A stretch of DNA of 64,000 bases from Candidatus Doudnabacteria bacterium (GCA_037200925.1 JBBCGO010000001.1:447698-511697), one strand, 5' to 3'. Shown: positions 1-16,415, counted from the first letter of the stretch. Translations and numbers: made by a program. Notes: generated by a model from the sequence alone, not told the origin.

Positions 1-1118
1 ATAAAATCCAAGACCTGCTTATCAATCACGTCCGCTTTCACAATCGGTTGTTTGCAACTCTTATTCTCTTTCCTAAATTTACAACCATAGGCCAAATACT
101 CGCCGTTCTTCCACTTGTAATATTGGGCATACATCTTTGGCAGCATTCTGGCGTTAGGGTCATTCTCCTTGCCCTTAAGCTCTTTATAGCTGTAGTAGCA
201 ATATACCAACCCTTGCAGTAAATAAAATCTATGTTGAGCAACTGGCCGCCCAAAAGTATTCCTGCGGCCAGCTATGGCATCCTGCACCTTATCAAACAAC
301 TTTTGCGAAATTATAGCTGGGTGAATACCTTTTATCGTCGGGTAATTTTTCTTCCGAGAAAATACCATACCAAGGTAAACTTTATTGCTTAGGATGTCTT
401 TAATAGTGCTATAAGTATAGGGTCGGCCAGATTTAGTCCGTGCCTTTGCTTTATTCATTTCAACGGCTACATCCGCATACGAATACCGGCCGGTCGCATA
501 TAATAAATATATTTTCTTTACGTTCTTTGCTCCGAGAGGATCAATCCGCCATTCTGGATCATAAATCGGCCGTCCTTTTTCTTTATCAAAGCCGATTTTC
601 TTTTTCGTGTATCCCGCTGGCGGATTGCCAGTCTGTTTGCCTTGTGTGCGTTTCTCCATCAAAGAGTTCCTGACCCAAAAGCTGATCTGTCTTGAAGTGT
701 GCTCATCAAATAATTCGTTAATCCCCTCGTTTAGAAAAGAACTCGGATCATTCCAGTCATTACCAAAGTTCTGGGTTACTGATGTTACATCAATACCCAG
801 TTTCTTCCTAAGCAATTCTTTGTAATGCCTGGCTTCTTTGACATTGCGAGCAAACCGAGAGGTGTGATAAACCAAGATGACTTCAAACTTGTGTAGCATC
901 GCATCCGTAATCATCCTTTGGAAATCGTCTCGCTTCAAAGCATCCGTGCCTGACACCAAATCCTTATACCACTCCACGATTTGAATGTTGTGTTCACTGG
1001 CGAACTTCTCAATTGATCGCCTTTGGTTATCAGGCGAAAAACCCTTATCCTGCTCCTCAGTACTTTCGCGGATATAAGCAATGCCTGTTTTCAGTTTTAG
1101 AGAGGGTTTTTTAATCAT
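1..1118 (-). CDS. Large serine recombinase. The N-terminus is complete (ATG at 1118-1116); the C-terminus runs off the window start.
   Basis: Manual minus-strand translation from 1118 gives MIKKPSLKLKNGIAYIRESTEEQDKGFSPDNQRRSIEKFASEHNIQ..., i.e. the resolvase catalytic motif (IAYIRxSTEEQ with the Ser nucleophile). A downstream region is recombinase/zinc-ribbon-like (YLLQGLVYC...C). The ORF track lists no stop-bounded ORF for this frame, consistent with the ORF running off the edge. Confidence 0.8.
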   Translation of the reverse strand, partial: MIKKPSLKLKTGIAYIRESTEEQDKGFSPDNQRRSIEKFASEHNIQIVEWYKDLVSGTDALKRDDFQRMITDAMLHKFEVILVYHTSRFARNVKEARHYKELLRKKLGIDVTSVTQNFGNDWNDPSSFLNEGINELFDEHTSRQISFWVRNSLMEKRTQGKQTGNPPAGYTKKKIGFDKEKGRPIYDPEWRIDPLGAKNVKKIYLLYATGRYSYADVAVEMNKAKARTKSGRPYTYSTIKDILSNKVYLGMVFSRKKNYPTIKGIHPAIISQKLFDKVQDAIAGRRNTFGRPVAQHRFYLLQGLVYCYYSYKELKGKENDPNARMLPKMYAQYYKWKNGEYLAYGCKFRKENKSCKQPIVKADVIDKQVLDF

Positions 1119-1129
1119 AACTAATTAAC

Positions 1130-2182
1130 TTACAGTTTTCTGTATCGGGTAGCACTACCCATACCCAACCGTTCTATTTTCTTAAATTTCAATAACTTGT
1201 CCAATACTTGATTAACTGTCGGCCGAGCGACTTTAGCTTTTTTGCTAATCTCTTGGGGAGTGGCCTCGTCTACAGTTTGCAGATACTTCCAGACCAATAT
1301 CTGCTTGGGTGAGAGTAGTTTCTCTATGTCTTCTTTATTGAGCAAGCCAATGGCTATTTTTGACTGCTTAAGCAGTATGTCAAAGAAGAACTCCAACCAC
1401 GGGGTTATATCTTCTCTCTTGCTCTTAGCTGTCTGTTGGCTCTTTCTTAAGGCAATATAGTATTCTGATTTATTATCCTCGATCAATTTTTCGTGGGAGA
1501 CATAAGGCATATAGACAAACCCTTCTTTCAAAAGAAGTAAATTTGTAAGGACACGGGAAAGACGGCCGTTGCCATCTTGGAACGGATGAATGTTCAGAAA
1601 TTCTACAAGGAAGTTGCCGATCACAAGTAGCGGATTATATTTCTTAATTTTGAGCTGGGTTTCTGTCCAATCTACTAATTCTTGCATTTCTTTCGGTGTT
1701 AAGTATGCGGGAGTGGGATTAAATAAAGTTGCAACGAAATTACCTTGAGCATCCGTCATATCAACTCTATTCTCGCCTTTTTTATAATCGCCCTTATGAC
1801 CCTGATCTTTTTCGACATACTTAAGCAGCTCGTTATGCAAATGCTTAATTGAGCTTTCGGACAATTTTATTGTCTGCCAAGCATCAAAAACATTATTTAG
1901 CAGATCAAAGTATCCCTGCACTTCTTGTTTATCTCTCGACGCAAACTTCTTCATTCCCAAACCACGAATGAATTTCTCGACATCTTCATCAGTTAGTTTA
2001 GAGCCCTCAATACGGGTCGAGGCTCCTGTGGAGGTGATTAAAACCCATTTCTTAAGCCTGCCTAACAACTGTGGGCTCAATTGTGCCCCTGATGTCCAGC
2101 GACCCTTAAGATCGTCAATTTGGGCGATTTTAGCCCAAATAGCATCCGGTATGTTACTAAGGCGTTTATCGAAGTTTTTCAT
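1130..2182 (-). CDS. Fic/Doc family protein with a C-terminal winged-helix-like region
   Basis: Canonical Fic motif HPFQDGNGRLSR (HxFx[DE]GNGRxxR) in the 350-aa ORF. Confidence 0.85.
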   Translation of the reverse strand: MKNFDKRLSNIPDAIWAKIAQIDDLKGRWTSGAQLSPQLLGRLKKWVLITSTGASTRIEGSKLTDEDVEKFIRGLGMKKFASRDKQEVQGYFDLLNNVFDAWQTIKLSESSIKHLHNELLKYVEKDQGHKGDYKKGENRVDMTDAQGNFVATLFNPTPAYLTPKEMQELVDWTETQLKIKKYNPLLVIGNFLVEFLNIHPFQDGNGRLSRVLTNLLLLKEGFVYMPYVSHEKLIEDNKSEYYIALRKSQQTAKSKREDITPWLEFFFDILLKQSKIAIGLLNKEDIEKLLSPKQILVWKYLQTVDEATPQEISKKAKVARPTVNQVLDKLLKFKKIERLGMGSATRYRKL

Positions 2183-2414
2183 AGTTATTTAGCTAATATA
2201 ATGATATATATAAGATTATATACGATATATAAAATAAAGTCAAATTGTACTCCCGCTTGTAATGCTTGAGGAGTTCATCATTTTCGATTGTTAGATTTAT
2301 CATAATTTCAATTTTATTAATAGCTTGAATTTGAATTCTAAATAAAAACAGCCTTTCGGCCGCCATTTATTGCGAATCACGAAATTAAATATGTAATTCT
2401 AGCCTTTTCAGCAT

Positions 2415-3371
2415 TTAAGATAATTCGAACAATTGATTCGCTATCCCAAGTAGCTCGTCTTTCTTGGCTACATTATCAAACCATTTTTTAGGAATTCCGC
2501 CAATTCCGTAATATGCTCCGGCAAGTTGTCCGTATATTGCTCCCGTGGTATCAGCGTCATCCCCAAGATTGATTGCCTTGAGTACTCCGTCTTCAAAGAA
2601 TTCCGAGTTATAAAACGCCCACAAAGCCGCTTCCATAGATTTAACTACAAATCCACTCCCTTCTATAAAAGGCGGATCATGATGTTTGAAAGAACCACGG
2701 GCAATATTTTCTATTTCTGATGTGAGTTGATTATTTTTCCAGAAATCTGGAATCGGAGAATATAAATCAGACAATAATTCTTCTTTCGAAACCCCATTTA
2801 ATGCCCCGATAATAAGTCCGGTGTAATATTTGCAAGCATCAGAACATAACTGAGAGCCATGGGTAATTTTTGAGCTTAATCCAGCATTTTTTACTGCTTG
2901 CTCTGGATTACTTCTAAAATACAAAGGTATTGGAGCAAGTCGCATAAGACTTCCATTTCCGTCAGAATTTCGAGAAGAAATCGCCACATACGGATCGTCT
3001 CCATTTCGGTATGTCAGGAGCGCTCTAAGTATTGTTTGGCCGACACCAATAGCCTTTCCTGAGCTTGAACAGTATCCTGTTTCAAGCCATTTTTTATATT
3101 TTTCAATTTGATCAACAGGATCAAAAGATTTTTTCTCGATTAAACTGTTTGCAAGACATAATGCCATAGCAGTATCGTCAGACCAATGACCAGCGGGTAA
3201 ATCAAACCAATCAGAATCTCTAAAATCAGTTATAGGTTCAAATTCGCCAACTGCTTTAAATTCTGCGGGAACTCCGAGGGCATCGCCAATTGCTAAACCA
3301 AACAAGGAGCCATGATATTTTTCCAATAGCTCCTTTCGCACAAGAATTTTTTGTTTTGATTCGATTTCCAT
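2415..3371 (-). CDS. ADP-ribosylglycohydrolase family protein (DraG/ARH-like)
   Basis: Motifs GDALG, HWSDDT, GNGSLMR and DDADTTGAIYGQLAGAYYG are typical of the ADP-ribosylglycohydrolase fold. Confidence 0.85.
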   Translation of the reverse strand: MEIESKQKILVRKELLEKYHGSLFGLAIGDALGVPAEFKAVGEFEPITDFRDSDWFDLPAGHWSDDTAMALCLANSLIEKKSFDPVDQIEKYKKWLETGYCSSSGKAIGVGQTILRALLTYRNGDDPYVAISSRNSDGNGSLMRLAPIPLYFRSNPEQAVKNAGLSSKITHGSQLCSDACKYYTGLIIGALNGVSKEELLSDLYSPIPDFWKNNQLTSEIENIARGSFKHHDPPFIEGSGFVVKSMEAALWAFYNSEFFEDGVLKAINLGDDADTTGAIYGQLAGAYYGIGGIPKKWFDNVAKKDELLGIANQLFELS

Positions 3372-3372
3372 A

Positions 3373-4961
3373 TTATTTTAATTTAGAAAAAAACTTCCAA
3401 ATCGCAAACATACCATAAGTGTCTAGTTTACAATATTCCAACATCTGACTTTCCTTTTCTTTCGCCATCTCCCCAACTAATTCACCTTTAGTTATTTGTC
3501 GATAAGCCTCGATAGCATCGGTACCATTTTGTACACCAAGTGTTTCATAGGATAAATCTGAAGCCCCTGTTAGTTTGGCGACTATTGGCAAGACTTTTTT
3601 AATTGAGGCTCTGCCTTCAAATCCTGGATGTACGTAATGTTGATCCTCAACTATATCCATCAAATCGTATGTTCTTTCAACTACCTTAAGAAAAAAATCT
3701 TTATATTCTGGTAAAAAAATTGCAAGTTCGCGATTTCGTGTATTTTCGAATTTTTTAGACCACGAAATAACCGTTCCCTTATTACCGATATGTTCTCGTA
3801 AATTCTTCGCGATACGCTCAGAGGGCTCTCCATCTAAGATTAGACATTCGAAATGAGTAGGCTCTGAATTCTCGTCATTTAGAACATGTAACGAATATTG
3901 AAAAACAATTTGTTGGTAGGGACGATATCCGCTATACGGAGGGATGGCAGTTGGATATGTTTCATAGTCGAGAAAATAAAGAGGAAATACAAGCGAATCG
4001 AGTTCGGTCTTGATCGACTTAATATCAATCAATGGTTCTTGAGATTTATGAACCATGATTTGATTTAGTTTTCTTGGTTTACTAGGTTTTTCATTTTTTT
4101 TTGATTCTTTGGGCTTTAATCTATCGTCTATTGGCACATTGCCAATTTCCAGTATACCCTCATTAAGTAACTCCTCTAGATATCTCTTACTATTTCCAAT
4201 TCTATTTAAATCATGAACGCTGTATCTAGGTACGCTCGGGTTGATATAAGAAAACGCTGTGCAATGAGCACTGCGACCCCTATAGTAACAAGGGCATGGA
4301 ACCGAAGGCATTTTTTTACTTAATAAATAGTTTTGGGCCTGCTCCATTTCTTCTACGGCAATTGGTTTCAAGCGTTCTATCGCCTCGGTCTTATCCTCGA
4401 TGATGAAAAGTTGACCTGGTGTGAAATCTAGCTCGCCTTTTCTAATGTATGCTCGATTGAGACGGACAAGATATTTTTTATCCAATGGTACTCCACATGC
4501 TTCAAGAACATTCGCCTGGAAAGCAAGGTCATATTCGTATTGAAGTTCTCTTTTTTATTAACTCTCTTAGGTTTTCCCTCGTCTTCTTCATCATCCTCTT
4601 CGGTTGATGACATTTTTATTTCATATATTTCGTATTTCTGAATTGAATCGTTCCATTTCAGGACGTCGGCAGCAGCAACGTATCTATCAGTCGCAAAAAC
4701 AGCCTGATAAATTACAGGTGTTCGCTCCGTAATAAGTTTTTGAGTCAATTCTTGAGCACCTTCGCTCCGCCTCTCAACGAGATAACCCCCAGGAAACATT
4801 CCCCGTGCTAATTCTTCTACCTCATTGCCCATCACAGCTAACGATTTCTCGAAATCCGATACTTCAAACTTTGCATACTCTTTAGACTCATGTCTTTTTA
4901 CCCAAACGTTGTTTGGACACTCTCGGTAGAGAATAAAATCAGTTTTTGTAAGGAGTGCCAT
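3373..4961 (-). pseudogene. DUF2779/Cas4-like PD-(D/E)xK nuclease-like gene, split into two overlapping ORFs (4428..4961 and 3373..4485) by a +/-1 frameshift in an A6 run near 4549-4554
   Basis: The N-terminal ORF has a Cas4/RecB-like start (TDFILYRECPNNVW). The C-terminal ORF has FLDYETY (DUF2779-like). The frame upstream of the second ORF reads ...KRELQYEYDLAFQANVLEACGVPLDKKYLV, which is continuous with the first ORF after a 1-nt change in the aaaaaa tract. Confidence 0.55.
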
Positions 4962-4966
4962 AAATG

Positions 4967-7900
4967 TTAAGCGTTACGCGTGCCTTTGCAATAAGGAAAA
5001 CGAGAGCACCCATAAAACTTTCCTCTCCGGCTGTTTCTCAAGACCATACGTGAATTACAGCGAGGACATAACGAATCAGTTAGGACAGGCGCTGGTCTAG
5101 GTATGGATGTTGTTGTCAGGCGTGTACTGAGGTTTTTGCACGCATTGCAAAATCTCCCATAGCCAGTAATCAAATCAGCATCTTTGAAATCAATTAATGG
5201 CTTTACTTCTTTGCATCTTGGGCATTCCCTAATATCACCATTTTGGAGTCCTTCTATAGTGCCTTGTATATTTGCAAGAAGTGAGTTGGCATTCTCTGGA
5301 TTTTTAAGTAATCGCGCAATTCTATCATCAAGGCTCGCAATCGGGTTTTTCCCACTGTTGAACTTATTGATTCTTAAAAATTTATAGCCATAACTTTCTA
5401 ATACTTTCTGGCGGTATACGTCATCATTGGAGTAGTAGTGCTCATAGTTGAATTCGTTGACTTCATCTGCATCTTTGAAGTGTTCTAAGAAACCATCGTA
5501 CTCAATGATGATTTTGTGTTCCTTGTGTCGCTCATCGGTATAGATAAGATGAAAATCAACCTCGTATGCTGGATGAGTGTAGGTGGGGTCTAGTTGTTTT
5601 AGATATTTTCCTATTTCAAACTGTGGCATAAATTCAATTGAATCTTTGTGCTGTTTCCAAAATTTCGTTTGATAAAACCAATTTAGCACTTCTGGCTCTT
5701 TTTTAGAGTTTGGATCTGTCTCGGAAACGCCGTGCTCTTTTCGCGCTTCGTCCAACATATATTTATAGTGTCTTAACGCTTCTCCAGCAGAGCCGGTGAA
5801 GTCCTCCAGGGGCTTGCTCAATACGAAATGGACGCACTCTTTGGCACGACTAAAGCCCACATTCAAACGCTGCGCTTTTAGTTGCCCGTCCTCTTCAACA
5901 TCTACCTTGCTTAAATCCTTAATGAATACGCCCCAGAGCTTATCGCTGTGTGGAGAGGCTACCATTGAGTAGTAGATGATGTCGCGTTCTTCTCCCTGGC
6001 AGGTGTCGAACGTCATTATCTTGAGTTTCAGCTTGTCCTGGAAATAATCCCACTCTGGCATTTTGCCAATCATTTCTACCAGGAGCTTCTGCTGATTTGT
6101 GTGTGGTGTGATAATACCCACGCTCACGACTTTATCTTCATCCTTTAACCGTTTAAGTTCAGAGATGATAAACTCAACTTCTTTAACATTAGTGTTAGGA
6201 TAGCGTTCATCTGCTGTCGTGGTCTCAACATACGAAAATTTTATTACTTCGTCTATGGATTTCCCGCGAATCTTCATCACTTGCAAACTTTCCTGATAGA
6301 AATACTTGTTTGAATAGGAAATGATTTCTTTATAACCTCTAAAGTGTTTCAGCAATTGGATATTGTAGTTGCTGACGAACTCAAAGAACTCAAGAATAGA
6401 AGTCTTGATGTTGAATTTTTTGAGTCTTTCCAATTTTATTGGATCGGTGGAGACGTTAGCTCTAAAATTAGCATTCAATCCGTTCAGGTACTCACGGTTA
6501 GTATCTCCGCGCGCTTGTGCCGCTTTGATGTTACTAAATTGTTTTTTGTCTCCTAGAATCAGCACTTTCTTTGCCCGCAAGAGGGCAGGAAATGCTTGGG
6601 CAATGCTTACCTGTGAGGCTTCATCAATCACCACTAAATCAAATAATCCTGGCTCTAGTGGTATATACTCAGCGTAGTCCCTAATGCCTGCCAATATGCA
6701 CGGAAAAGCCTCTTTGAGCTTCTTAAACTCATCTCTCGGGAATTTCTGTTTATTCTTTATGATATTCTTTAATGTTTGGGCATCGTTGCGATTGTTTTCA
6801 CAAAAATCAATTAGCTGTCCATCGAGAAGGTATGTTACTTGAGTAGTAACCAAATCTTCAATTTGCCTCATACGAGCGGCGTAGTTCAACTCGAGAATGT
6901 TGGAAAAATCTTTGCTCACTTTTTGCTTTAGGTTCAAGTATCTAATCTGTTTATCAAATTCTAGTTCATCACCGTCCGTAATCGCGTTGCTTATCACTGT
7001 GGCGAACTGTTCGGTATTGATACCAATCTTTTTTGCTGTCTTCGGATATTTCTCAACAATCTCTTTGAGATACCCTACCTTCTCACTCAGAGCGACGATT
7101 TCTTGAACGCCCAGTATAATCGCCTCATCAGTAAGGAGCTTGTGAGCCATCGCGATGAAATCGTAGTCACCTACATTTTTTCCATTTATTTCGTCACCAA
7201 GTTTTTGAGCATAACTAAAAATCTCTTGTATGTCTTTAAGTTCCTGGAGTTGTTCGTGGGGATTGGAGATCATGCTGTGAATAAAGGTTTGCTTGAAACT
7301 AATATCCAATTCTTCTGCTCGTTTTTTACTAAACAGATATCCGACTGCCCAAAGTTTCAGCTTTGAATACTGCTCGATGAAATATTGGAGTTTCTCTAAA
7401 TCTTTTGAGTCAAACTGTGAGAACTTACTGATAGCGTCAATTTTATTATAAAATGTCGCCTTTACTTTCTGTATACTTTCAAGGGCCAGCATTAATAAAC
7501 GCAAGAAATTTTCGGAGTCATCTAGTGTTCGTATACTTTTAGGGGTTACCTCAAGAAGCTCAAAAAACTTCTGCGTGACATTAGAAGTGAAAACGTTTTT
7601 AATTTGCTGCAGTGAGCTTCGTAACTCTCCAAGTTCGATGGCCACTTCGTCTTGTGGAGCCAACTCTTCAAAATCGAAAAATAAAACTTTTTCACTAAAA
7701 TAAAGTTCCAAATCAAAAAATTCTTGGATTTCTTTGATGTTTATATTCTCATAAGCAACCATCTCCGCTTCCAAGTCTTCTTTTAGAGAATTTCCAGATT
7801 TGATAATGGTTTCTTCTATATTCTCATAGTCATTTTTTACTGCGCGATGATAAGTTTTTATTCTATCGATGGCACTTTGAGCGAGAATTGAATTATAAGT

Positions 7901-9526
7901 ATTGCCGGTTTTTCCAAGTCTTAAAATTGGGTTCTGAAAGTTTTCATCATTGCGAACCTTATTCATCGTCTGGGTAATTTTGTCTTCGACGACGTCCAGC
8001 GCTTCCTTTTTATCGGAAAGAACCAATACCGATTGGTTTTTCAAAATTGCATCGAAAATAATAGCGGTAATGGTATGACTTTTTCCCGTTCCTGGCGGCC
8101 CCGAAACTACTAAATAGTTGCAGCCTTCTTTATTAATTGCAGATAGGATTTGCCGCTGCTCGCTATTGAGTGGTATTGGACTTGGGTAGACAAGCTTATC
8201 TGCTGTTTCTGTACCGTCCCATTCACCCTCAACTTCCGGATTGAAAGGCTGAGGATTATTTCTAATAAAGTCGTCTATCAGTTTATTAAAAATTTCTGCA
8301 AGATTGCCACCTTCTAGGCTTAACATCTGGAGGATTTCTTCGTAGTCATTAACCAACGCTTCGTCCGACTTATCAAATAAACAGATGTAACTGCTGTTAG
8401 AAATACGCACAGACGCGCCACGGGCGATTGTAGATTCACCGCTTGAAAATTCCGACGTACCTTCAAGTCCAAAAAAATGAGACATTTCATTTAGAACATC
8501 GTTGATGATTTGAGGGAAATCATCTTTGTGTTGAGACAAATAGATAATGCGATCTGAAATAGTCTGTAAGCTGCCCGTGGTCCCTTTTTGGGTATTGTGC
8601 TCTTGAACTACGAACTCAAGAGCCTTTTTATTAATATATACCTGTGAATCGAAGTCGATACTTAAGGTGTCTCCTTCTCGTTTAGTTGAAAAAGGGATAT
8701 AGAAAATCGGGTACTTACTGTTATTGAAAGAAATATCTCCAAAGTAAAGATAAAATTCTTGCTTATCCAAAATGCTTTTGTTACGCTCCATCTCGAAAAG
8801 TTCCAAAAACAAATCAGCAACTTGGAGATTCTCAAAAAAGGAAGTGAGGTTGCCTTTTACGTCTTGTGGAATGAATACTGATTTGAGTTCTTTTGTGAGA
8901 TTAACCTTCTCTTGAGCAATAATAAGATTCAATACTTCTGAAATTTTGTTCTCCAACAACCGAAGTATGACTGCGGTCAACTCTTCTTCAATAAGATAAA
9001 TATTGTCTTCGTCGCCTAGGTTAAGATTTTGCAAGGGCTTCTCAACGCTTTCAACAAAAGGGTGCACCAGTGCACTACGAATAATCTTTGAGGCTTCTTC
9101 AAGAGAGTTAGTAAGAGCAACGTCGTACTCTTTTGCATATAAAGTGCCCGCCTTCTCTATTTCATCAGCGACTTTTTCAGTAATGCCAGCGATTTCTGTA
9201 TTACTGATTTTACCTATTTGGAGCTTGATTAAATCAAGTAAATTTTTAGGAAGGTTTGTTTTATAAACCCCCTTCTCAATTTTATTCAGAATGTCTTCAT
9301 CAAAACTTTTGCTAATAAGTTTTGATGTTAGCTTGCTGAAAGAAGGGTACTTTTGAAGATTCAAACCAATTAGTAAATTGTCATTGTTCCGAAACTCGAT
9401 AGCCCGACGAGGGAGCTTATGTTTATGGAAATCCGTCTCCAAGAAATCCATAAAATACTTAGCAACCTCTTTGATAAATAAGAGGCCATTTTGTTCGACT
9501 TTTTGAATTAATGTTGCTGGTTTCAT
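4967..9526 (-). CDS. Giant multidomain protein (1519 aa): N-terminal region of unknown function, SF1 (Upf1/DNA2-like) helicase core, DUF559/Vsr-like endonuclease domain, and two C-terminal topoisomerase-type C4 zinc ribbons
   Basis: Walker A VVSGPPGTGKSHT. Motif II VVIDEASQV. Motif VI-like VGFSRAKE. Vsr/DUF559-like IIIEYDGFLEH. CPRC...C..C twice, the second being CPRCNSRMVLRNSRRGKFYGCSRFPYC (zf-C4_Topoisom-like). Confidence 0.85.
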   Translation of the reverse strand: MKPATLIQKVEQNGLLFIKEVAKYFMDFLETDFHKHKLPRRAIEFRNNDNLLIGLNLQKYPSFSKLTSKLISKSFDEDILNKIEKGVYKTNLPKNLLDLIKLQIGKISNTEIAGITEKVADEIEKAGTLYAKEYDVALTNSLEEASKIIRSALVHPFVESVEKPLQNLNLGDEDNIYLIEEELTAVILRLLENKISEVLNLIIAQEKVNLTKELKSVFIPQDVKGNLTSFFENLQVADLFLELFEMERNKSILDKQEFYLYFGDISFNNSKYPIFYIPFSTKREGDTLSIDFDSQVYINKKALEFVVQEHNTQKGTTGSLQTISDRIIYLSQHKDDFPQIINDVLNEMSHFFGLEGTSEFSSGESTIARGASVRISNSSYICLFDKSDEALVNDYEEILQMLSLEGGNLAEIFNKLIDDFIRNNPQPFNPEVEGEWDGTETADKLVYPSPIPLNSEQRQILSAINKEGCNYLVVSGPPGTGKSHTITAIIFDAILKNQSVLVLSDKKEALDVVEDKITQTMNKVRNDENFQNPILRLGKTGNTYNSILAQSAIDRIKTYHRAVKNDYENIEETIIKSGNSLKEDLEAEMVAYENINIKEIQEFFDLELYFSEKVLFFDFEELAPQDEVAIELGELRSSLQQIKNVFTSNVTQKFFELLEVTPKSIRTLDDSENFLRLLMLALESIQKVKATFYNKIDAISKFSQFDSKDLEKLQYFIEQYSKLKLWAVGYLFSKKRAEELDISFKQTFIHSMISNPHEQLQELKDIQEIFSYAQKLGDEINGKNVGDYDFIAMAHKLLTDEAIILGVQEIVALSEKVGYLKEIVEKYPKTAKKIGINTEQFATVISNAITDGDELEFDKQIRYLNLKQKVSKDFSNILELNYAARMRQIEDLVTTQVTYLLDGQLIDFCENNRNDAQTLKNIIKNKQKFPRDEFKKLKEAFPCILAGIRDYAEYIPLEPGLFDLVVIDEASQVSIAQAFPALLRAKKVLILGDKKQFSNIKAAQARGDTNREYLNGLNANFRANVSTDPIKLERLKKFNIKTSILEFFEFVSNYNIQLLKHFRGYKEIISYSNKYFYQESLQVMKIRGKSIDEVIKFSYVETTTADERYPNTNVKEVEFIISELKRLKDEDKVVSVGIITPHTNQQKLLVEMIGKMPEWDYFQDKLKLKIMTFDTCQGEERDIIYYSMVASPHSDKLWGVFIKDLSKVDVEEDGQLKAQRLNVGFSRAKECVHFVLSKPLEDFTGSAGEALRHYKYMLDEARKEHGVSETDPNSKKEPEVLNWFYQTKFWKQHKDSIEFMPQFEIGKYLKQLDPTYTHPAYEVDFHLIYTDERHKEHKIIIEYDGFLEHFKDADEVNEFNYEHYYSNDDVYRQKVLESYGYKFLRINKFNSGKNPIASLDDRIARLLKNPENANSLLANIQGTIEGLQNGDIRECPRCKEVKPLIDFKDADLITGYGRFCNACKNLSTRLTTTSIPRPAPVLTDSLCPRCNSRMVLRNSRRGKFYGCSRFPYCKGTRNA

Positions 9527-9536
9527 TTTATTGGGA

Positions 9537-9716
9537 TTACTTGTTGCGAAGATTAGAGTTTCTTTTTAGGAACTCCTCAATCTCTATTTTATTAATACGC
9601 CAGTGCCCGACTTTCGTTGCCTCAAGCTTCTTACTCTGGATATAGCGAAAAACGGTCTTATAGCTAAGGCCCAGTTTCTTTGCCGTTTGTTCTATTGTTA
9701 GATAGTCTTTTGTCAT
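9537..9716 (-). CDS. Excisionase-type HTH DNA-binding protein (HTH_17 family), 59 aa, not in the ORF track because it is under 60 aa
   Basis: Manual translation gives MTKDYLTIEQTAKKLGLSYKTVFRYIQSKKLEATKVGHWRINKIEIEEFLKRNSNLRNK, matching the excisionase/MerR-like HTH_17 pattern (...KVGRxWRI...). The stop lies 10 nt upstream of the helicase start. Confidence 0.6.
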   Translation of the reverse strand: MTKDYLTIEQTAKKLGLSYKTVFRYIQSKKLEATKVGHWRINKIEIEEFLKRNSNLRNK

Positions 9717-9952
9717 AGTTAATTACTATACACCATCTGTCCAAAATTGTCAATAATTGTCCAATTTGTCCAGCAACCGGCCGTGATACTAATATTTGCT
9801 ATAAAAACCGTATTGAATTGAGACCGATATTTACTATGCCTTAGTGTCATTCCTGACAGCAGTATTTGCGTAATACTTAGGGCGGGTGGATTTGAGATGA
9901 ATTTATGATTTGGTTGCTTGTTACTGATAGAAGCGGATGATACTAATAATTG

Positions 9953-11098
9953 CTAAAATAAACTCTGTTGTTTCTGACTGGATTTTGGATTGATTCCAAA
10001 TTCTTGCAAGACAAAATTTAGGACTGCCCCGTCAGGAACATTCAGCTCTATCCCCCTAACCTCAATGTCCTTTATCTCTTTAAGGCGTCTGAAATAGGTG
10101 CTGCGAGAGCCAGTGGTTTGCTTAAGATGATTCTTTAGCCCTGCCCAACCTTCCAGCCTTAAAACTCCTACAGCTTGGTATAGCTGTGCCTTAAGTTTTC
10201 CGTCACTATAATTCTTTTCGATAAAATCCTTGACCTGTTGGTTAAGCTGCCTGTAATCATAATCCTTTGAAACAACCAAACCATTCAAGGGATGATTAAA
10301 TATCTGGTCAACTTCGTGCTTCAATAGATCATTGGCAATGTTATACTTGAAAACTTCTGCCAAGGTAAAATTCTTTTTTGACGGATAAAACTTAGATAGG
10401 AATTGTCTGACTGAAGTTACATTGTGCAGGGTCAATTCAAACCTAAGAATAGATTCCTTATTATCGGCCAGCTTTCTGTGAATTTCTTTTTCTTCTTTGG
10501 TAAAACCCTGATCCAGCAAACTCTGAATTTGGTCATAAACCACAAAATGCGACGACGTCCTATTGAAGTATTCAAGATGGGTTAACTGACCATTAGGATT
10601 AAATTTTGGTTCAAATGACGAACGAAATCGGTATTTAGAATGAGCTAAAATTGCCAAAGCTTCTTCGGTGGTGCCGAAGGCTTTCACGTTGAGGTTCTTA
10701 CAATAAGAGACCATCGTTACTACTCCGTCCCTAACACTATTTCGAGAAGCCGATACCTTGATTGAAGCTAAAAAACTTATGATTGAGTCAATCAGAACTT
10801 CAAGATCAGCTTCGGATATTTCATAATAATTCTGGCCGTATTTGAGTTTGGGCAAAGAAACCTCGAGGTATAAATAATTATTACCTCGATTAAAACTGCT
10901 TTGGTGTGTCCAGTATTTCATAATGTAAATGCCCTTGGCTTGCTGGGATTTACGAAATTGGTCGCTGGTATGAATTAACTTTTTAATTCTTTTCTTGCCG
11001 TTCTTATCGTTGTCAAAACTCCCCTTGGCATCCTGAAAATAAGGGTTGTTTTCAACCGAATGAAAATTTGAAATTCTGATTCTTACGCTATCAATCAT
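9953..11098 (-). CDS. Putative rolling-circle replication initiator (Rep_trans-like)
   Basis: HFVVYDQIQSLL...ILRFELTLHN resembles the Rep_trans core (catalytic YDK followed by RxExR). The N-terminus IDSVRIRISNF resembles IDxLRFTF. The call rests on these weak motifs plus context only. Confidence 0.45.
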   Translation of the reverse strand: MIDSVRIRISNFHSVENNPYFQDAKGSFDNDKNGKKRIKKLIHTSDQFRKSQQAKGIYIMKYWTHQSSFNRGNNYLYLEVSLPKLKYGQNYYEISEADLEVLIDSIISFLASIKVSASRNSVRDGVVTMVSYCKNLNVKAFGTTEEALAILAHSKYRFRSSFEPKFNPNGQLTHLEYFNRTSSHFVVYDQIQSLLDQGFTKEEKEIHRKLADNKESILRFELTLHNVTSVRQFLSKFYPSKKNFTLAEVFKYNIANDLLKHEVDQIFNHPLNGLVVSKDYDYRQLNQQVKDFIEKNYSDGKLKAQLYQAVGVLRLEGWAGLKNHLKQTTGSRSTYFRRLKEIKDIEVRGIELNVPDGAVLNFVLQEFGINPKSSQKQQSLF

Positions 11099-11121
11099 AG
11101 AGGGGGTTTTTTAAGAGATGG

Positions 11122-11304
11122 TTAAGTCGCCACCCTGGTCTTAGGAGAACCCCCTCTAAGAGTTGAACCTACAGCCAAGGTAGCAGCTTTACTATCCCTG
11201 TTCTTAATAACTTGTTTTTGCCAGTAATTAAAGAAGTATCTGGCTAAGGCGTCAGACACAGCTTCTTTGTTTTCTTTGGTTAGTTTTGTTCTATGATTTG
11301 TCAT
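11122..11304 (-). CDS. Hypothetical small protein
   Basis: 60-aa ORF, no recognisable motif. Confidence 0.3.
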   Translation of the reverse strand: MTNHRTKLTKENKEAVSDALARYFFNYWQKQVIKNRDSKAATLAVGSTLRGGSPKTRVAT

Positions 11305-11409
11305 TTTTTTGAAACAAAAACAGCCCCATCAGGGCTGTTCTCGTAAGAACAGATTCTAATGGGGCTTCGTAAAGCCTAAGCCACAAAGTCTCGTAAGGCC
11401 TTATGACAC

Positions 11410-12207
11410 TTATTTGTCGGGGATAATTTTCAAATCCTTTGGGATTTGGAGGGTCTCGCTACACTTGCTACATTTATGCGTTCCTCTCATAAAGTGAGAC
11501 ATATCTTCAATTTTGAAGATCAGGTTGCCGCATTTGCTACAAACACAATTCGCACTCTTAATTCTTGGTGAAATTATACCTTCTTTGATGTAGTTGTCAA
11601 CTTGTTTCTTAAATCTTTCCTCAACTTTAAGGGATATATCGTCGGCCAAATTATCAAATCTCTCTTTTAAAGCCATCACGGCCGACCTGACTTCAAATGC
11701 AGGCGATGGAGATGGGCTTGGTGAGTAAGATGGCGATGGTGAAAACGAAGGAGATAAACTGATCTGTTCGACGGTAAGACCAAAATCATATTTTTTATTC
11801 AGAGAAACAACACTACTAATAACTCGGTCACTGGCTTCGGTCAATCTTATTGTAGGTTCAGTTAAGGTGGCAAAATTAGTGGTCAACTGTTGTATTGATG
11901 ATACAACCTTTCCAGCCTGAATAAATACGGGAGAATGAGCTAAATCAGTCAACACTTTTGCGGAATTATTTAGGTCAATCAACATTCCATTATTAACTGT
12001 CATAACCGTGCCTAAATTTGCAAGATTCTGGGTTGCCAAGACTAGGCTAGGAGAATGGATCGTTTCTGCTAATGCCCTTGCCGACCTGGTTATATCAGTA
12101 ACAATTGCATCGTTGATCGAAGTTCCAATAATAGCAGAGACTGGTGCTGGTTTTTTCAAATCAACTTCGTCTTTTTTCTTGTTTTGAGGGGGTTTAGTGT
12201 CGGACAT
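11410..12207 (-). CDS. Hypothetical protein with an SP-repeat linker and a C-terminal Cys4 zinc ribbon
   Basis: SPSFSPSPSYSPSPSPSP repeat. CSKCGN...HKCSKCSETL at the C-terminus. A hairpin plus T-run terminator at 11305-11345 read on the minus strand. Confidence 0.5.
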   Translation of the reverse strand: MSDTKPPQNKKKDEVDLKKPAPVSAIIGTSINDAIVTDITRSARALAETIHSPSLVLATQNLANLGTVMTVNNGMLIDLNNSAKVLTDLAHSPVFIQAGKVVSSIQQLTTNFATLTEPTIRLTEASDRVISSVVSLNKKYDFGLTVEQISLSPSFSPSPSYSPSPSPSPAFEVRSAVMALKERFDNLADDISLKVEERFKKQVDNYIKEGIISPRIKSANCVCSKCGNLIFKIEDMSHFMRGTHKCSKCSETLQIPKDLKIIPDK

Positions 12208-12366
12208 TACTTAGAGGGGTTTATATGCATCAATATATTAACAAAAAACAGGCTTGCCGCCTATTTCAAATTTTGGAATCGCATAGTAAAGGATGTTAGA
12301 ACTCAAATATATACTACACAGAGTGCTTAAAACTACCCTAGAATATTTTAGGAGTTATAATTATTT

Positions 12367-12654
12367 TCAGTCCTCTAACCATTTATTTTTTTGAATGATC
12401 CCAATAAAATATGCGGTTGCGTGTGTTGCAAGTGTAAGTCCAGTCTTACTTAACCCGTCCCAATCGCCGATAGAAATAAAGTGATAAGCCATTATTATAG
12501 CCCAAAGCAATACTATCGCTGGTAAGACATAAATAACACAAATCAAAACATTATTTACTGCGTTTAATGCAGTTTGTTTCCGTCTATGACTTTGTGAAGC
12601 ATCATCAGCTTCCAAATCAGCCTCTGTTGCAACATTTTTGCCTTTCCTTTTCAT
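12367..12654 (-). CDS. Small membrane protein
   Basis: Two hydrophobic helices. Stop/start abuts the ImmA gene. Confidence 0.45.
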   Translation of the reverse strand: MKRKGKNVATEADLEADDASQSHRRKQTALNAVNNVLICVIYVLPAIVLLWAIIMAYHFISIGDWDGLSKTGLTLATHATAYFIGIIQKNKWLED

Positions 12655-12655
12655 A

Positions 12656-13168
12656 TTAGACTATGGTTTGCCCTAGTAAGAATCTTGCTCTCAATGTTGC
12701 CGCAGATTCTGAAACCTTAAATTGCTCTGCAACTTCCGGCAAACTAATAGCATTTTTCCAAACCCTTAAAAATAAGTCTTTAGGCATCAGTAAATCAGCC
12801 GCCATATTATTGGCTTCAATTTCGATCTTTTTTTCAGCGTCTGTTAACTCTCTGCCCTCTTCGCTATTAAGTGCCTTAACAGGTTGTTTAATATTATCAA
12901 TATGTTCATTATTTGTATCAAAAAGATGTTTATGTTGAATGAAATGAGCTATTTCGTGAGCAATTGTAAAACGCTTCCTTGTTAACGGGTGAGAAGTGTT
13001 AATGTAAATAACAAAGTTGTCGCCCTCTTTGCTCAAAGAACCAGCATAATTATCATCTAATTCGCTGGTTTCTACTACATATAGACCTAATTCTTTTGCC
13101 AAATCAACAATAGGCACAGGATTTTGCTGAGCATATTTTGCTAAGATTTGTTCGGTTTTTTGATCCAT
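12656..13168 (-). CDS. ImmA/IrrE family metallopeptidase (DUF955)
   Basis: HEIAHF (HExxH) at the expected position. Family typical of prophage/ICE regulation modules. Confidence 0.8.
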   Translation of the reverse strand: MDQKTEQILAKYAQQNPVPIVDLAKELGLYVVETSELDDNYAGSLSKEGDNFVIYINTSHPLTRKRFTIAHEIAHFIQHKHLFDTNNEHIDNIKQPVKALNSEEGRELTDAEKKIEIEANNMAADLLMPKDLFLRVWKNAISLPEVAEQFKVSESAATLRARFLLGQTIV

Positions 13169-13297
13169 ACTTTTTAGAAAATAATGCCTAATTCTATACT
13201 ACCACACCCTCTGGGTAAAGTCATTGGATAAAATGAGCCTTGCATTCTTCAATTGAAAACCTAAATTACCCAGCTTTAATTTATAGAAAATAAATTT

Positions 13298-13372
13298 TGG
13301 GGTGCCAGACGAGAATCGAACTCGCGTGACCGCTGCCACAGAGCGGCGTTCTACCATTGAACTACTGGCACC
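13298..13372 (-). tRNA. tRNA-His (anticodon GTG) with encoded G-1 and CCA
   Basis: Hand-folded cloverleaf: 8-bp acceptor including G-1:C73. Anticodon stem CCGCU/AGCGG with loop CUGUGGC. T-loop TTCGATT. 3' CCA encoded. Confidence 0.85.
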
Positions 13373-13450
13373 ATAACAATTTAATTACACTACTTGCTAC
13401 ACATCATAATGGCCACATCCTAACAGTTTAATTTGCTTCCACATTGGAAA

Positions 13451-13525
13451 GTCAGCGGCCGAGCGGAATCGGACCCACGTGACAGCTGCCACAGAGCTGC
13501 GTTCTACCATTGAACTACGGGCACC
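13451..13525 (-). pseudogene. Degenerate tRNA-His(GTG)-like copy. The 5' ~47 nt are near-identical to the intact tRNA-His. The 3' half is divergent with a poor T-arm and acceptor and no CCA.
   Basis: Alignment with 13298..13372: 3 substitutions in the 5' 47 nt versus about 9 in the 3' 25 nt. The T-stem pairs only 3/5. Confidence 0.5.
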
Positions 13526-13588
13526 TCGTCTCAGTTTGTAGACACTTCGCGATTTTGCTTCGCAAAATACGCTACGGTCTACACGCTG
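13526..13588 (-). promoter_or_regulatory. Conserved structured tRNA 5'-leader element, copy A (tRNA orientation is the minus strand)
   Basis: About 85-90% identical to copies at 19008..19081 and 38495..38567. Contains a TTTTGC-GAA-GCAAAA hairpin and an outer GYAGAC/GUCURC stem with compensatory changes. Confidence 0.6.
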
Positions 13589-13651
13589 CTCCTCTCAAAA
13601 AATTTGTTCTCGGCCTTCGGCCTGCGACTCAAATTTTTTGTGGTTTAAAAG

Positions 13652-13963
13652 CTACTTACTTGCGACCATGACCGCGAACACGACCACTGTCAGTGCAAAC
13701 ATCCAACCCACAGTATACCCAAAAAACTTCAGCGCTTCTTTTTTCTGTCCATCAAAATACATCAGCACCGGCCGGCCCAATACTAACGCGCTGGTGATCG
13801 CGGCGGATAGCACAAACAACATCAGGACTAAGATAGGAGTAAACGCAGTATCTTTCTGTCCGAACCAAACAGACCCATGGTTCATGATAGATGCGACGAG
13901 AGTGACATACAGCAGCACCAAAACCGCATGACCCAAACTGTGAGCAACTGGATTGTCTTTCAT
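13652..13963 (-). CDS. Small membrane protein (hypothetical)
   Basis: 103-aa ORF with three hydrophobic segments. Preferred over the antisense ORF 13638..13931, which has an implausible composition. Confidence 0.45.
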   Translation of the reverse strand: MKDNPVAHSLGHAVLVLLYVTLVASIMNHGSVWFGQKDTAFTPILVLMLFVLSAAITSALVLGRPVLMYFDGQKKEALKFFGYTVGWMFALTVVVFAVMVASK

Positions 13964-13977
13964 ATTTTATCCTTTCT

Positions 13978-14052
13978 TGGTGCCCCTGGCTGGAATCGAA
14001 CCAACATCAAGGCCTTAGAAGAGCCTTGCTTTATCCATTAAGCTACAGGGGC
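13978..14052 (-). tRNA. tRNA-Arg (anticodon TCT)
   Basis: Hand-folded: acceptor GCCCCUG/CAGGGGC. Anticodon stem AGGCU/GGCCU with loop CUUCUAA. T-loop TTCGATT. CCA encoded. Confidence 0.8.
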
Positions 14053-14277
14053 GCAATTTTAACAAAAAATCCCCACACAGATTGGAGATTCAGCATAAAC
14101 ATACCTGCTGTGTCAGGTAGGTTTGGATCGATTTTTTAAAGCCTCTTAATTATACTCCTGTTCAGCCTAAATGTCAAAAAATGTTAATTTTTGCTTAGGT
14201 TTCTGTTATAATAATATCAACAATTTTGGGCGGCTATCCTCAATAGAAACCCAAAAAAACAACTAAAAAGAGGGCTT

Positions 14278-15099
14278 ATGCTAAAGGCATTTTGGCTTTT
14301 CTCGCTCATCCCTACTTTCCTGTTGGTGTCAGCCACGACAGTCTACCTCCACCGGGCTTCTACCCACGTTTCAGTAAAGTTCATCTCCGGCGTCAGATGG
14401 TGCTGGAAATTCATTATCTGGTTCACGGGCGGTCCGGACGAGGCTCAGTGGGTTGCAGTTCATCGCTACCATCACGTCTACAGCGACAAACCAGGTGATC
14501 CGCACAGTCCGCACATAGATGGTTTCCCACAGATCCAAATGGGAAACGTAATCTTCTACGTGCGATGGATCAGAAATCATTCCGAGCTGGTCGAGCGGTA
14601 CTCGCGCGATGTGAGAAAGAGATACGGCTGGTGGGACCGCCATGTGTTCTGCCATCCCCGCTACGGCATCCTTGCCGGGACCGCGACCCTTTGCATGATG
14701 ATCGGTTTGTACTTTCACTCAGTTCGGATCGGATTGTACGGCGGCGTGATCGCCGCGTTCATGCATTTTCTGCAGTACGTTTTCCTGCTCACACCGTCCA
14801 TCAACGGCTTATGCCACTGGCCGCACAAATGGCTCGGCGGCTACCAGCACAGATTTCTGAAAGAGAACCAATGGATAGCCGTTGACCACGCGCTGCTTAC
14901 ATTCAACAATTGGGTCGTCGCGATGCTGACCGGCGGTGAAGGCTTCCACTACAACCACCACTGGGAACGCATGTCCGCGCGGTTCTCGAAGAATTGGATA
15001 GAACTGCCCGCAGACTGGGGCTACTGGCTCTGGATCTGGCCCATGGAAAAACTGGGCCTGGCTTACGACGTGAAAGTCGCAAAATGGACCTACATATAA
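14278..15099 (+). CDS. Membrane fatty acid desaturase
   Basis: Three histidine boxes: HRASTH, HRYHH, HYNHH. Multiple TM segments. Visibly GC-richer than the island to the left. Confidence 0.85.
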   Translation: MLKAFWLFSLIPTFLLVSATTVYLHRASTHVSVKFISGVRWCWKFIIWFTGGPDEAQWVAVHRYHHVYSDKPGDPHSPHIDGFPQIQMGNVIFYVRWIRNHSELVERYSRDVRKRYGWWDRHVFCHPRYGILAGTATLCMMIGLYFHSVRIGLYGGVIAAFMHFLQYVFLLTPSINGLCHWPHKWLGGYQHRFLKENQWIAVDHALLTFNNWVVAMLTGGEGFHYNHHWERMSARFSKNWIELPADWGYWLWIWPMEKLGLAYDVKVAKWTYI

Positions 15100-15198
15100 C
15101 CGCTTAACCTTTCGGGGTTAGGCGGCTTTTTTTGTCTGTTAATAAATGAAACAATTTACGCGATCAAACGTATAAATTATAGAAAGGAGAACAAATAT

Positions 15199-15357
15199 AT
15201 GGCATGGTATGGAGATTCAAAAGGGCACGCCGATGCTGGCAAAAAAGGGGGCAAGGCCCAGGGTAAACGCAACAATCCGGGAAATTTCGCTAATGATCGG
15301 GAAAAAGCCAAACGCGCAGGCCGCAAGGGCGGCTCAGCCTCAGGCGGCGCGGACTAA
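15199..15357 (+). CDS. KGG-repeat stress-induced protein (52 aa)
   Basis: Manual ORF: MAWYGDSKGHADAGKKGGKAQGKRNNPGNFANDREKAKRAGRKGGSASGGAD with KGG repeats. RBS aaaggaga about 8 nt upstream. Confidence 0.6.
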   Translation: MAWYGDSKGHADAGKKGGKAQGKRNNPGNFANDREKAKRAGRKGGSASGGAD

Positions 15358-15362
15358 ATTGG

Positions 15363-16415
15363 TCAGCCGGTAGCGGAAACCAGGAACAGATCAATATCAA
15401 GTTTGGTATTGGAATCCGAGCTTTTTATCCTATGGTCTATCAGAAGCAGCTGCTGGAGCAGCTGCTTTAATTTTGCAACTGAAATATTTTTGAGGTTTTT
15501 CGCAGTAATAAACACGCGCCCCGGGCTCCAGCCTAGTTTTTCCGCGATCTGCTCGTTGGTATGTCCGGCCGACTGCAAAAGGCTTGTGACCAAAAGGCTT
15601 CTTAACTGTTCGGAAAGCAAACCTATCACTTTTATAAAAGTGGTTTTTTCCTCGGTTGTGGCTCCTGCGATAAAATTCTCCAGAGCTTGGAAAGCGCCTT
15701 TTTGATTTTTGACGATCATCTCATCCGTCAAAGCAAAAACCGAATCCGGGATCTTGGGCTTTACCAGCGAATTAACGTCCTGCGGCTCGATGCGGGTGGT
15801 GTTGCTGGAAAGTTTCAATAATTCGGAATAAACTTGCCAGAGGTCAAAAGCTTCTTTGCGTTCTATAACCTTGCCCCCGGCTTTTTTTTCTTCGTACAGG
15901 TCCCGGCCCAAAAATTGGGCCAGGCGGTTTACTGCCCCGTCAGAGATCTCTGAGCCCAAAGTTTTGGCCATGGCTTTGATCCATTGGTCCAGAACCGGGC
16001 CATGCGGCAGGTTGAACTCCGTCACATTAATGCCTGATGCCAGGAATTTTTTGGTGAATCCCAGGCGGCGGTCAATTTTCAAGGTTTGCCAGAAAACCAA
16101 AAAATTATCAGCAGGCACGTTTTGGATGAATTGCAAAAGAAATTCGGCTAAAACGGCCTGATCCGCTTTTTTCGGCAGACTATCGCGGATGATGATCAGT
16201 TTCTTGCTTGAAAAAAGTGACGGCTCCAGCAAATGCTGCAGATTTTTGATGAGCTCGGTTTCGGACAGATTCTCGCCGTCAAACAGGCTGATGGAAGAAG
16301 CGGAATATTTTTTGGCGAACTCGGCTTTCCATCGGTCAAGTTTACGGCGCAGCGAAAAATCGTCCTCGCCGTAAAAAAGAAAAATGTTAGAAGAGGGAGA
16401 GGTTTTTTCCGTCAT
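15363..16415 (-). CDS. holA: DNA polymerase III subunit delta
   Basis: N-terminus IFLFYGEDDF and overall HolA-like length and pattern. Confidence 0.75.
   Translation of the reverse strand: MTEKTSPSSNIFLFYGEDDFSLRRKLDRWKAEFAKKYSASSISLFDGENLSETELIKNLQHLLEPSLFSSKKLIIIRDSLPKKADQAVLAEFLLQFIQNVPADNFLVFWQTLKIDRRLGFTKKFLASGINVTEFNLPHGPVLDQWIKAMAKTLGSEISDGAVNRLAQFLGRDLYEEKKAGGKVIERKEAFDLWQVYSELLKLSSNTTRIEPQDVNSLVKPKIPDSVFALTDEMIVKNQKGAFQALENFIAGATTEEKTTFIKVIGLLSEQLRSLLVTSLLQSAGHTNEQIAEKLGWSPGRVFITAKNLKNISVAKLKQLLQQLLLIDHRIKSSDSNTKLDIDLFLVSATG

Follow-up and report, generated by a model that had tools for sequence, protein, structure and literature searches.

A helicase–nuclease gene on a serine-recombinase island of Candidatus Doudnabacteria as a candidate single-gene defence effector

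The gene described here lies in a stretch of 64,000 nucleotides (nt) from the genome of a Candidatus Doudnabacteria bacterium (GCA_037200925.1, JBBCGO010000001.1:447698-511697), the whole of which is called the window in the following. Positions 4967–9526 of its minus strand hold a complete open reading frame (ORF) with an ATG start, which codes for 1519 amino acids (aa; the stop codon is included in the coordinates). Judged by its ATG-started reading frame and its full-length homologues, the ORF is intact and real. The NCBI protein P0001, which stems from a metagenome-assembled genome of Candidatus Doudnabacteria and is labelled only 'AAA domain-containing protein', matches the product at 100% identity. 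A first-pass annotation had described the protein as a superfamily 1 helicase fused to a Vsr/DUF559 nuclease and two topoisomerase-type zinc ribbons, and had proposed a defence or anti-plasmid effector carried on a mobile element. The motifs quoted there are located at aa 476–485 (GPPGTGKSHT), 968–972 (DEASQ), 1223–1230 (VGFSRAKE) and 1339–1349 (IIIEYDGFLEH), and the architecture of helicase, Vsr-like nuclease and zinc ribbon is borne out. Taken as a whole, our results confirm that description in part and support its interpretation in part.

The helicase core comprises aa 451–1240 (positions 5807–8176; this and all other parts of the gene are on the minus strand) and was delimited by Pfam and by a phmmer search against PDB sequences. 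Both of the Pfam domains to be expected for such a motor scored above threshold, AAA_11 with 65.9 bits (aa 453–608 and a second stretch) and AAA_12 with 66.4 bits (aa 1054–1235). The closest solved proteins by sequence are IGHMBP2, Upf1 and Sen1, with an E-value of 4e-7 at best and over the RecA-like core only; therefore, the motor is classed as Upf1-like, superfamily 1B (SF1B). Helicase motifs I (8072–8101), II (DEASQ, 6611–6625) and VI (5837–5860) are intact and are invariant in a distant set of 32 relatives that share 32–57% identity with the 1519-aa protein. Between motifs Ia and II an insertion of about 330 aa is found (aa 610–940, positions 6707–7699), the sole poorly conserved region of the protein, with a column conservation of 0.43–0.57 versus 0.8–0.9 elsewhere. 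A bona fide DUF4011 protein from Salinibacter carries an insertion at the same site. Upf1, IGHMBP2 and Sen1 resemble the protein in the motor domain, but they possess neither a nuclease nor a DUF4011-like N-terminus nor the 330-aa insertion.

The nuclease domain extends over aa ~1270–1392 (positions 5351–5719) and is of the Vsr-like PD-(D/E)xK type found in MTES_1575 and DUF559. In Pfam, the protein itself does not reveal it: DUF559 gave no match in the 1519 aa, and MTES_1575 remained below threshold with 15.9 bits versus a cut-off of 38.2. Likewise, a profile of the C-terminal region searched against PDB sequences matched topoisomerase I zinc ribbons only and no nuclease. However, when an alignment of 23 sequences covering aa 1245–1519 was compared by hhalign with the bona fide MTES_1575 domain of a Salinibacter plasmid protein (itself at 121 bits in Pfam), an E-value of 7e-4 at 28% identity was obtained, with the motifs SxxE, ExDG and R..vLe..GY.flR in register. 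Among the distant set, Pfam matched MTES_1575 in 15 of the 32 proteins and DUF559 in two. Residues D1324, E1342, Y1343, D1344, R1385 and N1387 are invariant in all 32, and in the close family S1274 and E1277 do not vary either, with at least 90% conservation in the distant set. Because of the hhalign match, the Pfam matches in distant relatives and these invariant residues, the Vsr-like part of the first-pass assignment holds, although the DUF559 match expected for the protein itself failed. From the sequence, the active site looks intact. A structure model of aa 1245–1519 based on the same alignment reached a mean pLDDT (predicted local distance difference test) of 67, with 62–86 in the nuclease core. 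A fold search with it returned the RAP domain of FASTKD4 (8.7), the homing endonuclease I-Bth0305I (8.1), the DUF559 protein NGO0050 (8.0, 26% identity) and Vsr (6.5). From this clan of Vsr, DUF559, I-Bth0305I and RAP domains the 1519-aa protein differs by the fusion of the nuclease to a motor, and it offers no evidence for the T:G mismatch specificity of Vsr. The nearest relatives of the nuclease by sequence are the DNA endonuclease families MTES_1575 and DUF559.

Of the two zinc ribbons described as topoisomerase-type, the last one proved to be so. Pfam assigns aa 1486–1518 (positions 4973–5071) to Zn_ribbon_Top1 (PF01396) with 44.1 bits, the gathering cut-off being 32, and a profile search matched this C4 ribbon to the zinc ribbons of E. 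coli topoisomerase I (E 2.5e-5). The first ribbon (positions 5135–5224) is a C4 motif for which no Pfam family was matched over aa 1435–1463, and therein the topoisomerase designation fails. Its cysteines C1435, C1438, C1460 and C1463 are invariant in the close family, and its sole match is a weak one to an HNH-endonuclease family of the PHROG collection (E 2.8e-4). The tail is modular: Zn_ribbon_Top1 is present in 16 of the 32 distant relatives and DUF5710 in one. In four proteins with 66–75% identity (P0029, P0030, P0037 and P0038) a WYL domain stands in place of the topoisomerase-type ribbon and the first C4 ribbon is retained. Both kinds of tail are related to modules that bind single-stranded DNA (ssDNA), as do the C-terminal zinc-ribbon domains of E. 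coli topoisomerase I and the WYL domain of Thermotoga PIF1.

For the N-terminal 450 residues (positions 8177–9526), structure prediction yielded a confident model without a solved relative, consisting of a helical bundle at about aa 94–232 and an alpha/beta module at about aa 235–400. The motifs MDFLETDFHK and LFDKSDEALVNDYEE are invariant. When 1.84 billion cluster representatives were searched with this region, 452 clusters were matched, and wherever the matched protein appears complete (1300–1700 aa) the domain is located at its N-terminus; therefore, it is considered specific to this helicase family. A DUF4011 domain, which the first-pass annotation had listed for checking, was not matched by Pfam in the 1519-aa protein at E<=0.1. 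Comparison by hhalign with a single DUF4011 sequence was uninformative (E 0.32). With a profile built from the Salinibacter protein and 20 homologues, the N-terminal family profile gave a weak match of E 0.051, or E 0.012 with a query of 107 sequences. In both runs the same blocks were aligned in the same order (YPIFYIP with APLlLvPV, INKKA with N.aL, and LFDKSDE..NDYE with FSF.Kf.My.DL). A remote kinship is made plausible by this in-order alignment and by the Salinibacter protein, whose domain order is identical. Thus, judged by sequence, the domain may at best be a remote relative of DUF4011, and this relation is not established.

How far the protein belongs to a known defence system was examined with curated models. 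Hhe, to which the first-pass annotation had likened it, is reportedly (in work attributed to Gao et al., 2020) a single-gene anti-phage protein with DUF4011, an SF1 helicase and a Vsr-like nuclease. The likeness holds for the domain architecture but not for membership: the NCBIfam model of Hhe (NF042953) gave 98.8 bits versus a cut-off of 2000 and aligned to aa 937–1237 only, and the PADLOC model (PDLC02194) matched aa 941–1246 only (E 3.8e-22). The best-scoring defence models were PADLOC PDC-S37 (E 1.1e-42, only profile positions 928–1201, that is 274 of 1550) and NCBIfam ProA (NF058533; E 3.6e-42, 144 bits versus a cut-off of 1500, only aa 937–1234 and 278 of 1903 profile positions); both align to the second half of the helicase only (aa ~940–1240). 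Hence PADLOC does return matches, but partial ones, those of PDC-S37, MkoA and Hhe being confined to residues of the helicase core. The match to PADLOC MkoC runs from aa 272 to 1231 in one stretch (E 1.1e-39) and thus extends beyond the core by about 180 residues on the N-terminal side; it excludes residues 1–271 and the zinc ribbons.

With the helicases of the Hhe or DUF4011/MTES_1575/DUF3320 kind the protein shares the order of parts, namely an N-terminal domain of about 400–450 aa, the Walker A motif, the insertion between motifs Ia and II, AAA_12, a homologous nuclease of MTES_1575 type placed C-terminally to AAA_11/AAA_12, and a C-terminal tail. For plasmid DUF3320 proteins the tblastn alignment is unbroken from the helicase into the nuclease (aa 831–1403). 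The tail itself differs, being DUF3320 there and a zinc ribbon or WYL domain in the present family, and the 1519-aa protein is about 300–400 aa shorter. It appears to be of common ancestry with the DUF4011/MTES_1575 helicases, but it forms a well conserved family of its own. Another likeness is to Nhi of Staphylococcus, which is reported to be an anti-phage protein uniting a nuclease and an Upf1-like SF1 helicase in one chain (Bari and co-workers, 2022). There the nuclease is N-terminal and of another type; the PADLOC Nhi model did not match the 1519-aa protein at E<=0.1 and weakly matches eight of 32 family members. In Mokosh type II a single protein combines an Upf1-like COG1112 helicase with a C-terminal nuclease, its defence activity was validated experimentally, and this activity depends on the ATPase site as well as on the nuclease site (bioRxiv 10.1101/2022.05.11.491447). 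The present protein resembles Mokosh type II (MkoC) in the Upf1-like COG1112 helicase, in the single polypeptide with C-terminal nuclease and in having no obligate neighbour, but the Mokosh nuclease is of the PLD family, for which Pfam gave no match here. By analogy, the protein probably works like the Hhe, ProA, Mokosh and PDC-S37 systems. In the literature, we found no paper mentioning PDC-S37, nothing relevant on ProA as an anti-phage DUF4011 helicase and no account of how Hhe or DUF4011 works.

The family comprises more than 118 full-length homologues, about 1520 aa long and with 60–84% identity from end to end. When one genome each of 185,579 species was scanned, 140 loci were obtained, which is less than 0.1% of the species sampled. 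These loci span more than 20 phyla including DPANN archaea, and the range of 60–84% identity applies also between phyla. Among the best 80 of the 140 loci, many belong to Patescibacteria; others are from Ignavibacteria, Elusimicrobia, Nitrospirota, Acidobacteriota, Actinomycetota, Gamma- and Alphaproteobacteria, Rickettsiales, Planctomycetota, Chloroflexota, Bdellovibrionales and the archaeal Woesearchaeota. Copies are present on three of 2.9 million viral contigs, no full-length copy was found in deposited phages, and a single plasmid, from Priestia megaterium, holds a full-length one. The large neighbours of one of the viral-contig copies (locus L090) had no match among PDB sequences. Thus, the gene is rare, patchy in occurrence and spread by horizontal transfer, and chromosomes or integrated elements are its main place of residence. 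In the automatic annotation of JGI, 'superfamily I helicase / very-short-patch-repair endonuclease / Zn-ribbon topoisomerase 1' is already the name of some members, and therefore the domain composition as such is not new to databases.

In the window, the location on a mobile element, as proposed in the first place, is substantiated by a serine recombinase at one end, a tRNA-His at the other and a low GC content (38–40% in the island versus about 48% in the rest of the window). The recombinase gene (1–1118, minus strand) runs off the start of the window, so that its first 372 aa are present; this large serine recombinase represents the integrase of the island, and a full version of 546 aa with Resolvase and Recombinase domains is found in locus L006. 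The neighbours of the helicase are those that had been named. Upstream, an HTH_17 (helix-turn-helix) gene of the excisionase/MerR-like type, coding for 59 aa (9537–9716, minus strand; Pfam E 3.2e-14), ends 10 nt before the helicase start; it is probably a regulator in the same operon, and it also matches the PHROG family 'excisionase and transcriptional regulator' (E 3.6e-9). Downstream follow genes for a DUF2779 nuclease, an ADP-ribosylglycohydrolase and a Fic protein. The DUF2779 gene (3373–4961, minus strand) begins 6 nt behind the helicase; a frameshift, located near an A-run at about position 4550, breaks it into two overlapping ORFs, one of 177 aa and one of 370 aa. Beside an identical helicase in GCA_015689235.1 it is intact with 529 aa, and in locus L010 with 527 aa at 80% identity; the split copy is either a pseudogene or an assembly error. 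DUF2779 directly follows the helicase also in L010, L068 and L095 and is thus a facultative companion. The Fic gene (1130–2182, minus strand; Pfam Fic) is SoFic-like with a C-terminal winged helix and matches PADLOC SoFic with an E-value of 8.6e-42 over positions 61–340 of 361. It directly adjoins the ADP-ribosylglycohydrolase gene on the same strand (together 1130–3371), and in locus L045 the helicase is directly preceded by a Fic homologue.

Upstream of the HTH gene, a sigma-70-like candidate promoter (9725–9753, minus strand) with TTGACA, a 17 nt spacer and TATAGT agrees with the consensus in 11 of 12 positions and is overlapped by three to four TGGACA repeats. The 236-nt region in which it lies (9725–9958, minus strand) also contains a 21-nt direct repeat in three copies, on the plus strand TGATACTAATATTTGCTATAA. 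Both kinds of repeats are possibly operators or iterons. The next gene (9953–11098, minus strand) codes for a 381-aa protein, a conserved gene of the element with remote homologues at 26% identity, for which Pfam, PADLOC and PHROGs gave no match. In L001 and L025 such homologues share the place and orientation, just before HTH_17 and the helicase; in L054 and L055 they also lie just upstream, but with the strand reversed. An assignment as rolling-circle Rep, suggested by one motif, found no support in these three collections and was dropped. Farther upstream, a 265-aa protein without family match (11410–12207, minus strand) shows a low-complexity tract, SPSPSYSPSPSPSP, and a C-terminal zinc ribbon of the form CxxC...CxxC.

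The genomic contexts of the family were compared in 87 fetched loci, a few of which are duplicates of one contig, and in four further loci (L092–L095). A large serine recombinase is located within about 7 kb in 27 of the 87 and in all four of the further loci; it directly adjoins the helicase in L001, L025, L033 and L044 and lies within a few kb in L092–L095. No obligate partner gene and no conserved synteny emerged across the fetched loci. At about 18 of 66 loci, the end of a small HTH gene is no more than a few nt away from the helicase start; such a gene is either HTH_17/MerR-like or of the unrelated XRE type. Nucleases of the DUF2779 or PDDEXK_1 kind and DUF2130 recur as facultative neighbours; ThsB_TIR, SIR2_2, GmrSD together with an EcoRI methylase, other methylases and SoFic occur occasionally, and Prim-Pol/AAA_25 and ParB-methylase genes are present at some loci. 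The copies are accompanied by serine recombinases, by tyrosine integrases, by Prim-Pol elements or by no recombinase at all, and some stand alone among housekeeping genes. The helicase of L001 is 83% identical to that of the window, whereas flanking genes of the element are only 26% and 45% identical. Therefore, the gene fits exchangeable cargo better than a part of the element backbone. Many copies, with L092–L095 and L001 as examples, lie in islands of about 8–12 kb with a recurring layout of housekeeping genes, a large opposite-strand serine recombinase, a few small genes without known function, the helicase–nuclease, one or two variable genes and again housekeeping genes. The variable genes are PDDEXK_1, DUF2779, ThsB_TIR or DUF2130. 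In several loci of Patescibacteria, a DUF2130 gene coding for a zinc ribbon and a coiled coil is close to the helicase, at a distance of up to about 110 nt in L028, L053, L073 and L081 and of about 1.8 kb in L093.

On balance we lean, though not strongly, towards a single-gene helicase–nuclease that acts as a nucleic-acid defence effector and travels as cargo of a small serine-recombinase island. We infer the defence or anti-plasmid activity from context only. For the layout as such there is a precedent, because Mokosh type II is a validated combination of an Upf1-like helicase and a C-terminal nuclease. Further points in favour are the architecture with its invariant nuclease residues, the scattered distribution over many phyla without common synteny, the large serine recombinases nearby, the upstream HTH genes of different types along with the WYL variants, neighbours of a defence type (SoFic-like Fic in the window; ThsB_TIR, GmrSD with EcoRI methylase and SIR2_2 elsewhere) and the rarity on viral contigs and plasmids. 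In the mechanism that we propose, the C-terminal zinc ribbons would hold ssDNA exposed in an invader, for example an intermediate of phage replication, DNA that enters by conjugation or transformation, or a plasmid of the rolling-circle type. The SF1B motor would then translocate in 5'->3' direction and unwind with ATP, and the Vsr-like domain would cut the strand that is fed to it. The N-terminal domain may sense the target or hold the enzyme off until it is triggered, and the small HTH protein upstream may repress the operon. Several observations weigh against such a role. All thresholds of curated defence families were failed and the PADLOC matches are partial; most nearest neighbours are mobile-element or housekeeping genes, and the defence-type neighbours were listed without a control; for an immune gene, a conservation of 60–84% between phyla along 1500 residues is uncommonly high; and the model of the nuclease is of medium confidence only, at a pLDDT of 67. 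Finally, motors of the Upf1 type work on DNA and on RNA alike, and therefore the substrate may be either of them.

This last point leads to an alternative that we consider distinctly unlikely, in which the same kind of effector is directed, in the way proposed for Mokosh, against RNA or RNA/DNA hybrids such as R-loops or the transcripts of a phage, and the Vsr-like domain would be an RNase as in RAP domains. It would agree with the fact that the closest solved motors, Upf1, IGHMBP2 and Sen1, are RNA helicases, but it agrees poorly with a topoisomerase-type ribbon and a replacing WYL domain of ssDNA-binding kinds, or with a nuclease that is nearest to DNA endonuclease families. A different possibility is a function in the life cycle of the mobile element: the protein would process the excised island for its replication or transfer, or aid it in competing with or excluding other elements, and would not protect the host from phages. 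The close linkage to large serine recombinases speaks for this, as do the order of a ~380-aa protein, HTH_17 and helicase that recurs in the window, L001 and L025, the ~380-aa homologue that lies just upstream with reversed strand in L054 and L055, the likeness of the upstream HTH protein to excisionases, and the Prim-Pol/AAA_25 and ParB-methylase genes at some loci. Yet the helicase is far better conserved than its flanking genes between the window and L001, as fits cargo, it occurs with varied recombinases and elements or with none, and the upstream HTH protein is sometimes of the XRE and not the excisionase type. Furthermore, neither Vsr-like nucleases nor Upf1-like motors are known as parts of serine-recombinase element machinery. 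We regard this possibility as unlikely, if less so than an RNA target.

A function for the host in DNA repair or replication restart, be it as a DNA2- or RecD-like helicase–nuclease or through motor-coupled nicking of mismatches in the manner of Vsr, is the least probable of the explanations weighed here. SF1B helicases, PD-(D/E)xK nucleases and ssDNA-binding zinc ribbons are found in repair enzymes too, and the high conservation as well as the copies among housekeeping genes could be understood in this way. A repair enzyme is, however, hard to reconcile with a gene that is present in less than 0.1% of the sampled species and patchy across phyla, that stands behind dedicated HTH regulators and that in the window lies in a low-GC island with a recombinase. 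The RecD models TIGR01447 and PRK10875 gave 24.8 bits versus a cut-off of 310 and 20 bits versus 671, respectively. Neither a housekeeping helicase such as RecD or HelD as best match nor conserved synteny was found, and an identity of this kind was rejected for these sub-threshold scores and the lacking synteny.

If the defence effector is taken one step further, the family might constitute an unrecognised, self-sufficient immune effector distinct from Hhe and Mokosh, with an N-terminal sensor of unsolved fold, which forms the principal cargo of small serine-recombinase islands and is carried by them between the candidate phyla radiation (CPR; Patescibacteria), DPANN archaea and numerous further phyla. 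This more specific proposal is tentative, and we place it somewhat short of an even chance. If true, it would mean a portable nucleic-acid immunity for organisms with reduced genomes. Provided that it does act in defence, the family would add to the helicase–nuclease defence proteins a branch that is well conserved, self-contained and mobile to an unusual degree. It is common in CPR genomes, and its recurrent cargo position on small serine-recombinase islands shows the movement of a gene between very distant lineages. The practical value is modest: a further candidate for phage-defence screens and a compact motor–nuclease with a tail predicted to bind ssDNA.

Some minor observations concern the other end of the island. 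Next to the tRNA end, an M78/ImmA-like metallopeptidase is encoded (12656–13168, minus strand), which matches PADLOC CapP with an E-value of 1.4e-29; no XRE-type partner adjoins it, and the next ORF, of 95 aa, resembles a membrane protein. In positions 1–16000, no structured RNA was found besides tRNAs. The tRNA-His at the low-GC edge of the island (13298–13371, minus strand) is followed after 81 nt by a second tRNA-His(GTG) (13453–13525, minus strand). Over aligned segments of about 90 nt the mean column identity of the pair is 85%; the two are close over the 5' two-thirds and divergent in the T-arm and the 3' side of the acceptor. With the Rfam tRNA model the island-side copy scores 63.9 bits versus 38.5 for the other one, and it may have been brought in by the island itself. 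Outside the island, a 273-aa membrane protein (14278–15099, plus strand), for which Pfam gave no match at E<=0.01, carries the histidine boxes HRYHH and HYNHH, which recall fatty-acid desaturases.

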